Part shown: piece by piece, positions 10,118 to 11,407 of the stretch
Numbering within the stretch: position 1 is the stretch's first letter
How the letters are laid out: every line of letters begins with the position of its first letter
DNA from: Escherichia coli
Lineage (GTDB): Bacteria > Pseudomonadota > Gammaproteobacteria > Enterobacterales > Enterobacteriaceae
Strand: one strand, 5' to 3'
Length of the DNA stretch: 64,000 nt
Assembly (NCBI RefSeq): GCF_011045215.1
Contig: NZ_CP049201.1
Made by a program: the position numbers and the translations under genes
Notes under the pieces: generated by a model
Told to the model about the DNA's origin: nothing
Seen by the model: only the letters and a program-made list of their open reading frames with translations
Databases searched by the model: none

Positions 10118-10483
10118 TCATTTTCTCTTGTTCAAAATAAGTCGCATTAATGTTTCTATAAGAAACAAATAATATTGTTTTAAGAAATAAACTACGTTGC
10201 AATTTAATCGAAATCTACGCCGCCATTTGTGTGATGTAAAGCGCATTTTTGTCTGGTGTAAGCGTAAACACCACAAATAAGAAACAAAAATGGTTTCTTA
10301 TATAAATAAAAAAGGAAATTATTTCGTACTCTTTCAATGTAAAAAAGAGTAAAGACTTGTTTTGATAAGCGAAATAAATTCTGTTTCTGGACTAAACGTG
10401 AAGCGGTTCCTGATGTGTGCTAAAATGCGTTTCTTTGATAAATCTCAATTTTTAAGAGGTTTACGCCAGGCAGGAAAATTTAA

Positions 10484-10846
10484 ATGAATGAATTTGAGAA
10501 GATTTTTAATGAAATGAATCTGGACCGGGCATTGCTACCGATCCTTTTTCGTTCGAACCGGTCGACAGTGTGGAAGTATTTAAGCGGCGATAGTACGGCT
10601 CCTGCCTCTGCCATGTCGCTGATTATGCTGTTGCAGTTGATACAGAAACGAAACCCCGATCTGTTAGCCGAATGGTTAACGCTTTCTGATTTCACCATTC
10701 CGCCAGAAGTTTACCTGGACCAGCCTGATTACTGGAAAGGGTGGGTGTATACCCAACATAAGGTCAATAAAAACGTCCTGGAATATCTAAAAAAACACTA
10801 TCCGGATGAAGACCAAAAAAGTATGGGTAAAGGCCGGGAAGAGTAA
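10484..10846 (+). CDS. Hypothetical protein with HTH-like N-terminus (120 aa), divergent from the YadA-like gene
   Basis: ORF preceded by a 360-bp AT-rich intergenic region; segment ...RSTVWKYLSGDS... resembles an XRE-type recognition helix. No confident homolog. Confidence 0.45.
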   Translation: MNEFEKIFNEMNLDRALLPILFRSNRSTVWKYLSGDSTAPASAMSLIMLLQLIQKRNPDLLAEWLTLSDFTIPPEVYLDQPDYWKGWVYTQHKVNKNVLEYLKKHYPDEDQKSMGKGREE

Positions 10847-10868
10847 TTTTGCCTCTACTCGGCTATAT

Positions 10869-10953
10869 GCCGGATGCGGCGCAAGCGCCTTATCTGGCCT
10901 ACGATTCGGGCATATTTTGTAGGCATGATAAGACGCGTCAGCGTCGCATCAGG
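10869..10953. repeat. REP (repetitive extragenic palindromic) elements
   Basis: GCCGGATGCGGCG...CTTATC.GGCCTAC-type palindromic units in inverted orientation (BIME-like), overlapping the last codons of ybbJ. Confidence 0.6.
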
Positions 10954-11407
10954 CGATGACCGCACGGATGATCAGCGTTATCCCTTCTATCGCAATGACT
11001 TCAACATGCGTACCTGCGCCGAGATCCTCGCTGGCGCTGACAGGCCATGAACTGTCACCGACGCGCATATGACCGCGCCCGTTGACCAGCGGAGATTCCA
11101 GCACAAAACGTCGGCCAATCAGCTGCTGCCCGCGCTGGTTTAAATGACTGTCGCTGTGCTTTTGTTCGCGCACCCGCCGCGACAACCATTTCCACCACAG
11201 CCAGGCGGCGAGCAGCGTCAGGACGGCAAACATCACCCCTTGCCACTCCCAACCCAGCGGCACCAGCCAGACCACCAGGCCGGTAATCACCGCTGCCACG
11301 CCGCTCCACAACAAATAACCATTTCCGCCCAGCATCTCGGCTGCCAGCAGCAAACCGCCGAGACTGAGCCAGAAAATATGTGGATGAACGACCATTAACT
11401 CCATCAT
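10949..11407 (-). CDS. ybbJ: NfeD-like inner membrane protein YbbJ
   Basis: 152 aa; matches the E. coli YbbJ sequence as recalled; overlaps qmcA stop. Confidence 0.9.

Follow-up and report, generated by a model that had tools for sequence, protein, structure and literature searches.

The stretch of DNA considered here (the window) is 64,000 nucleotides of Escherichia coli contig NZ_CP049201.1 (assembly GCF_011045215.1), in which a siiEA-like giant adhesin gene and type I secretion system (T1SS) genes are followed by cueR, an islet, and then ybbJ, qmcA, fetAB and cnoX. The islet, between cueR and ybbJ (~8391-10850), has a G+C content below that of its flanks, and 1408 of 5426 complete E. coli genomes carry at least 80% of it. 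Within it z0640, a gene for a small helix-turn-helix (HTH) protein and the subject of what follows, travels in a four-gene module with a divergent operon for a short YadA-family trimeric autotransporter (below, the adhesin), a lipoprotein and a tiny membrane protein (Table 1). In kind, z0640 is an ordinary local HTH regulator, and the best-supported mechanism for it, which the sequence evidence makes moderately probable, is local transcriptional control, including autoregulation, through operators resembling GTTTCT-N3-AGAAAC. The initial annotation of this DNA had already pointed to a small divergent open reading frame (ORF) beside the autotransporter gene and to an AT-rich gap between the two, and both are as it described them.

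Table 1. Features of the islet and of the control region of z0640 (window coordinates; a dot marks features given without strand)
Feature	Coordinates	Strand	Description
z0640, HTH ORF	10484-10846	+	120 aa, ATG start
Shared divergent control region	10118-10483	.	366 bp, 30% G+C (0.47-0.60 in flanks)
Candidate operator A	10152-10166	.	perfect palindrome GTTTCT-ATA-AGAAAC, inside predicted autotransporter leader
Candidate operator B	10280-10307	.	AGAAAC-N7-GTTTCT and GTTTCTtatATAAAt, upstream of autotransporter promoter (-35)
Candidate operator C	10383-10397	.	GTTTCTggaCTAAAC, about -50 to -36 from putative HTH-gene start
Candidate operator D	10429-10443	.	GTTTCTttgATAAAt, overlaps putative HTH-gene transcription start
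Predicted sigma-70 promoter, autotransporter operon	10212-10240	-	-35 TTTACA (10240-10235), 17-nt spacer, -10 TAGATT (10217-10212); consensus scan
Predicted extended -10 of HTH gene	10418-10426	+	TGCTAAAAT (TGcTAAAAT), ~60 bp 5′ of ATG; conservation
YadA-anchor autotransporter gene (z0639/gmrA)	9101-10117	-	338 aa; Pfam YadA_anchor 45 bits (cut-off 22.7) and RefSeq product name
Small lipoprotein	8594-9016	-	140 aa
Single-pass membrane protein, third gene of module	8394-8597	-	67 aa (64-70 aa in other lineages)

z0640 is a real gene, and one under selection. Synonymous sites are saturated at low amino acid-changing divergence in comparison with the Pseudocitrobacter and Symbiopectobacterium orthologues (proportions of synonymous and nonsynonymous differences, pS ~0.75 and pN 0.16-0.19), its occurrence in E. 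coli is wide (1415 of the 5426 complete genomes, with an identical protein on at least 1000 contigs), and its expression is evident in published RNA-seq data dealt with below. A Shine-Dalgarno AGGA is present 8 nt 5′ of the ATG, at 10472-10475. Carriers include O157:H7, O55:H7 and many extraintestinal (ExPEC) and avian (APEC) pathogenic strains. At present every database labels it ‘hypothetical’ and, if the regulatory reading is right, a function would be assigned to a gene that roughly one in four complete E. coli genomes carries. In the databases some E. coli variants (P0016, P0018 and P0006) depart in sequence beyond residue ~76 or ~96, as though frameshifted in the C-terminal domain, and there is a cluster of 14 members among them.

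The HTH gene is genetically locked to the short trimeric-autotransporter module. In E. coli co-occurrence is almost perfect, with 1415 genomes having the former and 1412 the autotransporter gene, and z0640 with its control region is 93-99.9% identical across genomes. Loss of the HTH gene from islets that keep the autotransporter, which the initial annotation had named as the pattern that would tell against a regulatory link, is found neither there nor in the other lineages. In Pseudocitrobacter (72% identity to the HTH protein; three loci, L003-L005) the same four-gene module is between qmcA and fetA with a spacer of 368-370 bp, and in Candidatus Symbiopectobacterium (77%; spacer 379 bp) an intact HTH gene near nrdAB faces a truncated autotransporter stalk. 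At greater distance, the gene is divergent from two tandem YadA-anchor genes in Lelliottia wanjuensis (48%) and from a single one in both a metagenomic relative (43%) and Hafnia alvei (44%), and these three modules sit at unrelated chromosomal sites. Five more lineages, then, keep the divergent pairing though their chromosomal sites differ from that in E. coli, the Symbiopectobacterium partner being a remnant, and the lipoprotein is conserved in all these modules. The spacer is 359-408 bp in most other lineages and, after start-codon correction, ~290 bp in Hafnia. Among GTDB species representatives, those with a close relative are two Escherichia species, a Pseudocitrobacter metagenome-assembled genome and Symbiopectobacterium only.

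Several features of the partner and of the insertion sites are pertinent in their own right. The adhesin passenger is hypervariable, some 380 E. coli genomes carrying a diverged variant instead and matching only the first 40-64% of the autotransporter query (the anchor-encoding end) at 83-90% identity. The Symbiopectobacterium partner (L006, 5097-5621) is a 174-aa ORF homologous to the adhesin stalk only, which ends before the anchor and is probably a pseudogene. The module sites in Pseudocitrobacter (qmcA/fetA) and Escherichia (cueR/ybbJ) are separated by a few kb within one conserved neighborhood, and no integrase or transposase is visible at either insertion point.

With synonymous sites between lineages saturated, blocks that stay conserved in an alignment of the gap across these lineages are meaningful. 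On the adhesin side, Pseudocitrobacter and Symbiopectobacterium keep both the -35 and the -10 hexamer, with a spacer that varies, and transcription would start near 10205 to give a leader of ~88 nt. On the other side, the extended -10, which the promoter scanner did not call (the -35 is weak), begins a ~37-nt block, TGTGcTAAAATGCGTTTCTTTGATaAATCTCAATTTT, that hardly differs among E. coli, Pseudocitrobacter and Symbiopectobacterium, and TGGTAAAAT is found in Lelliottia too; the HTH-gene transcript would start near 10433 with a leader of ~50 nt. The ‘long AT-rich leader’ initially ascribed to z0640 is not supported, as a conserved extended -10 only ~60 bp 5′ of the ATG makes the 366-bp gap a divergent two-promoter region instead. 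RNAalifold detected no conserved RNA structure in either predicted leader, and 10118-10483 matched no Rfam family. Attention is also drawn to TGTGATGTAAAGCGC, a 15-mer at 10229-10244 that overlaps the -35 of the adhesin promoter, with no change between E. coli and Lelliottia, whose regulators are only 48% identical. It holds a CRP-like TGTGA half-site, of which the metagenomic relative has a better version, TGA-N6-TCACA, and it may be a second regulatory input.

What the gap has in excess is GTTTCT or its complement AGAAAC, with six copies where 0.25 would be expected (none of 3000 shuffles reached six), as against 26 copies in the remaining 63.6 kb of the window. The corresponding gaps of Pseudocitrobacter, Symbiopectobacterium, Lelliottia and the metagenomic relative have 3-5 copies each and, low-complexity A/T hexamers aside, GTTTCT is the top shared hexamer among the lineage gaps. 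With up to two mismatches, the 15-mer palindrome GTTTCT-N3-AGAAAC has six matches in the whole 64 kb, and four of them, at 10152, 10293, 10383 and 10429, are in the gap; one-mismatch versions are present in Pseudocitrobacter, Symbiopectobacterium and the metagenomic relative. Position is conserved as well as sequence. In each of the six lineages the GTTTCT half of candidate operator A keeps a distance of 34-37 nt to the start codon of the autotransporter gene, the position of B is occupied by GTTTTTattAGAAAC or GCTTCTtttAGAAAC in other lineages, and both C (101-103 nt from the ATG) and D (55-57 nt) keep their places in E. coli, Pseudocitrobacter and Symbiopectobacterium. A palindrome of 15 bp suits a dimeric XRE protein. 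To our knowledge, the motif corresponds to the consensus of no known E. coli regulator.

The family to which the HTH protein belongs is very small, unnamed and confined to Enterobacterales. A word-indexed homology search gave 21 proteins, every one at least 62% identical to it, and an exhaustive HMMER search of 1.84 billion representatives gave 24, some more distant; homologues more distant than those of the modules above are alignable mainly over the HTH and occur in other contexts. (P0032, of 2772 aa with six matching stretches, was rejected as a homologue, being a repeat-summed false positive that reflects the YDG and MBG repeats of a type IX secretion system adhesin.) AlphaFold2 given only 11 close sequences yielded a mean predicted local distance difference test (pLDDT) of 58, and given the 24-sequence alignment with the distant HMMER homologues it yielded an all-helical model with pLDDT 92 and a predicted template modeling score of 0.81. 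Its helices (3-11, 15-22, 26-34, 41-56 and 58-70, then four short ones) include a five-helix bundle of XRE type, its HTH made up of helices 2 and 3. Foldseek against the PDB and viral libraries matched XRE HTH structures only, over residues ~1-63, and in structure comparison the model scored 7.5 with Aca2, 7.4 with NE0471 (root-mean-square deviation, rmsd, 1.5 Å over 57 residues), 7.3 with SO3848, 7.2 with Aca1, 6.9 with HigA2, 6.2 with both MqsA and lambda cI and 5-5.5 with several C-proteins. Comparison by hhalign of the family profile with E. coli MqsA also aligned the HTH, with E = 0.0018.

On the predicted model, RSTVWKYLSGDS (residues 26-37) supplies the recognition helix of an HTH of XRE type. 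The XRE-like helix noticed near the N-terminus at the outset is thus backed by the model, by the Foldseek matches and by the alignment with MqsA, and a failure to predict any HTH fold, which would have counted against it, did not occur. The accompanying claim that no further domain is recognizable was also correct: in searches with the single protein no family of Pfam, NCBIfam, PHROG or PADLOC, and no curated HTH family model, passes threshold. Across the 24 members the Pfam matches converge on MqsA_antitoxin (6 of 24, best 2.4e-5), Xre-like-HTH (four, 3.7e-5), HTH_3 (three, 2.5e-4) and HTH_26 (two), yet these are sub-threshold. The C-terminal region, residues 70-115, has a conserved motif, PPEVYL..PDYWKGW, and no sequence or structural relative was found for it; by analogy with Aca2-like proteins it may serve dimerization.

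The islet is O-island 29 (OI-29) of O157:H7 strain EDL933, and the lambda-Red primers of a study of it (Yang et al. 2018, PMC5826968) were mapped onto the window. The forward arm for z0640 (10446-10483) ends right before the ATG of the HTH ORF and the reverse arm, in an O157 genome, takes up directly behind the stop codon; this exact flanking identifies the ORF as z0640. The gmrA arms map to 9063-9100 and 10118-10156, flanking exactly 9101-10117, which makes gmrA the YadA-anchor autotransporter gene and not the HTH gene. The gmrA product is the only one of OI-29 for which DNA binding has been claimed. A discrepancy in the enterohemorrhagic E. coli literature comes into sharper view here, and it is the main added interest of z0640: the protein published as transcription factor of the islet is, on its sequence, a secreted adhesin of the YadA family encoded by a different gene of the same islet, and the islet's only protein with a DNA-binding fold, z0640, has been examined for motility alone so far. 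In that work z0640 is a ‘hypothetical protein’ whose deletion left motility and fliC/motA expression unchanged and whose reintroduction into the Delta-OI-29 strain failed to restore motility (PMC5826968); a 2022 review repeats the result, and the literature searched held no other mention of z0640. Expression in Dulbecco's modified Eagle's medium, in reads per kilobase per million, was 20 for z0638, 96 for gmrA (z0639) and 43.5 for z0640, and all three were zero on attachment to HeLa cells (PMC5826968, Table S3), with a 5- to 10-fold decrease by quantitative reverse transcription PCR. The joint shut-off on HeLa contact fits shared control of both divergent units and does not reveal whether its sign is positive or negative.

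From these components a mechanism can be put together. The HTH protein would bind as a dimer to sites like GTTTCT-N3-AGAAAC, about four of which are spread over the shared AT-rich control region, and through them would control both its own promoter and that of the divergent adhesin. Site D, over the putative start of z0640 transcription, fits autorepression, and site C is near -45 from that start; on the adhesin side, site A falls within the predicted leader and site B upstream of the promoter. We infer DNA binding, recognition of the motif by the protein, the promoter positions and the sign of regulation. The initial proposal of a local regulator of the islet stands as far as comparison takes it, that is, through co-occurrence, divergent pairing in five lineages and the recurring motif, and no further. 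If the proposal is right, the module makes a compact cassette of regulator and adhesin that is portable and whose operator motif can be read.

A number of observations weigh against this mechanism. The Hafnia control region has a single copy of GTTTCT/AGAAAC and that of a short-contig locus, L013, has none; the palindromic arrangement is not kept in every lineage, with often just one half-site being conserved; and the more distant homologues L011, L015 and L016 are not beside an autotransporter gene. The protein is, by residue count, mildly acidic overall. Its best Pfam match, in which the C-terminal HTH part of the MqsA_antitoxin model aligns with residues 6-63 (E = 0.08), has 13.5 bits against a cut-off of 30, and PDB sequence searches, both single-sequence and profile, gave only chance matches (such as Esa1 and cyclin E) and no HTH. 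The null motility result belongs here also, though it is neutral for a local regulator and shows only that z0640 has no obvious global role.

The motif, or the AT-rich gap at large, could instead serve factors other than the HTH protein, which we consider improbable. A gap of such low G+C inside a horizontally acquired islet is congenial to this, half-site arrangements vary among lineages, the islet's expression depends on temperature, pH, osmolarity and contact with the host (PMC5826968), and conservation of TGTGATGTAAAGCGC with its CRP-like half-site in both E. coli and Lelliottia means that other factors probably bind the control region. However, GTTTCT is rare in the rest of the window and recurs with the module in genera, and at chromosomal sites, that have nothing but the module in common. 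A different departure is that the HTH fold is used other than on double-stranded DNA, either on the mRNA leader of the adhesin or of z0640 itself, as with Aca2, or in protein-protein contact via the conserved aromatic-rich C-terminal domain. The invariant AGAAAC is within the predicted 5′ untranslated region of the adhesin, and the protein is not basic overall, but neither leader has a conserved RNA secondary structure, nor the gap an Rfam match. As to Aca2 (anti-CRISPR-associated; YdiL/DUF1870-like), full-length superposition is poor (rmsd 7-9 Å), there is no DUF1870-type Pfam match or other sequence-family match, and z0640 has neither an acr gene nor a conserved leader RNA hairpin, its setting in all close relatives being a chromosomal adhesin module and not an anti-CRISPR, phage or mobile-element one. 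We consider such use of the fold very improbable.

An antitoxin-type reading, likewise improbable in our view, has in its favor that HTH domains of antitoxins (MqsA, HigA2, Xre-like-HTH) are the protein's nearest matches in both sequence and structure, that site D overlaps the gene's own putative promoter and that distant homologues are in mobile-element-like contexts. The likeness is nevertheless partial. Alignment with MqsA (YgiT; PF15731) covers only MqsA residues 76-129, where the HTH is C-terminal; in z0640 it is N-terminal, the protein beginning directly with it and having no Cys4 motif or other trace of the MqsA zinc-ribbon domain. In contrast to both MqsA and HigA2, z0640 has no toxin-binding domain, an unrelated helical C-terminal domain and no cognate toxin gene, and all scores are below family thresholds. 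No toxin-like ORF adjoins it, its neighbors being the divergent autotransporter operon, repetitive extragenic palindromic (REP) elements and ybbJ, and PADLOC gave no match. Its conserved partner is the adhesin operon, with divergent YadA-anchor pairing retained at 43-48% protein identity and at four or more insertion sites, and with the GTTTCT copy near the adhesin start codon (34-37 nt) invariant across six lineages.

Other known systems offer parallels of limited extent. Restriction-modification Controller (C) proteins and other small XRE regulators encoded beside their targets differ in being co-directional with those targets, in having restriction genes as targets and in lacking an extra C-terminal domain, and no sequence relationship of the z0640 protein to them was detected. 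Trimeric autotransporter adhesins are regulated by VirF (AraC family) for YadA, NadR (MarR family) for NadA and H-NS for UpaG/EhaG. The job proposed for z0640, conditional expression of such an adhesin, is the same, but the protein families are different and we know of no case where the gene for VirF, NadR or H-NS is constantly paired, in divergent orientation, with that for the adhesin.

The edges of the islet merit a few remarks. Downstream of the HTH gene are REP elements, then convergent ybbJ; the REP-type palindromic elements (10832-10988) start within the gene's final codons and take up all the space to ybbJ, with Rfam giving only sub-threshold naRNA4/REP matches there. In O157:H7 the sequence after the HTH stop codon is different, with 178 bp to ybbJ, so that, with the REP elements beginning at the gene end, the right-hand boundary of the islet is essentially at that stop codon. 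For the lipoprotein, a SadB-like helper role was considered and set aside, there being no sequence match to any solved structure. Directly upstream of cueR (7983-8390) is a SiiEA/BapA-related giant adhesin gene with those for a T1SS ABC transporter and an HlyD adaptor (26-7986). Regulation of this locus by the HTH protein was rejected, as other genera do not have the locus beside the module. The end of the HlyD gene overlaps the beginning of cueR by 4 bp (ATGA), from which cueR looks translationally coupled to the acquired secretion operon.
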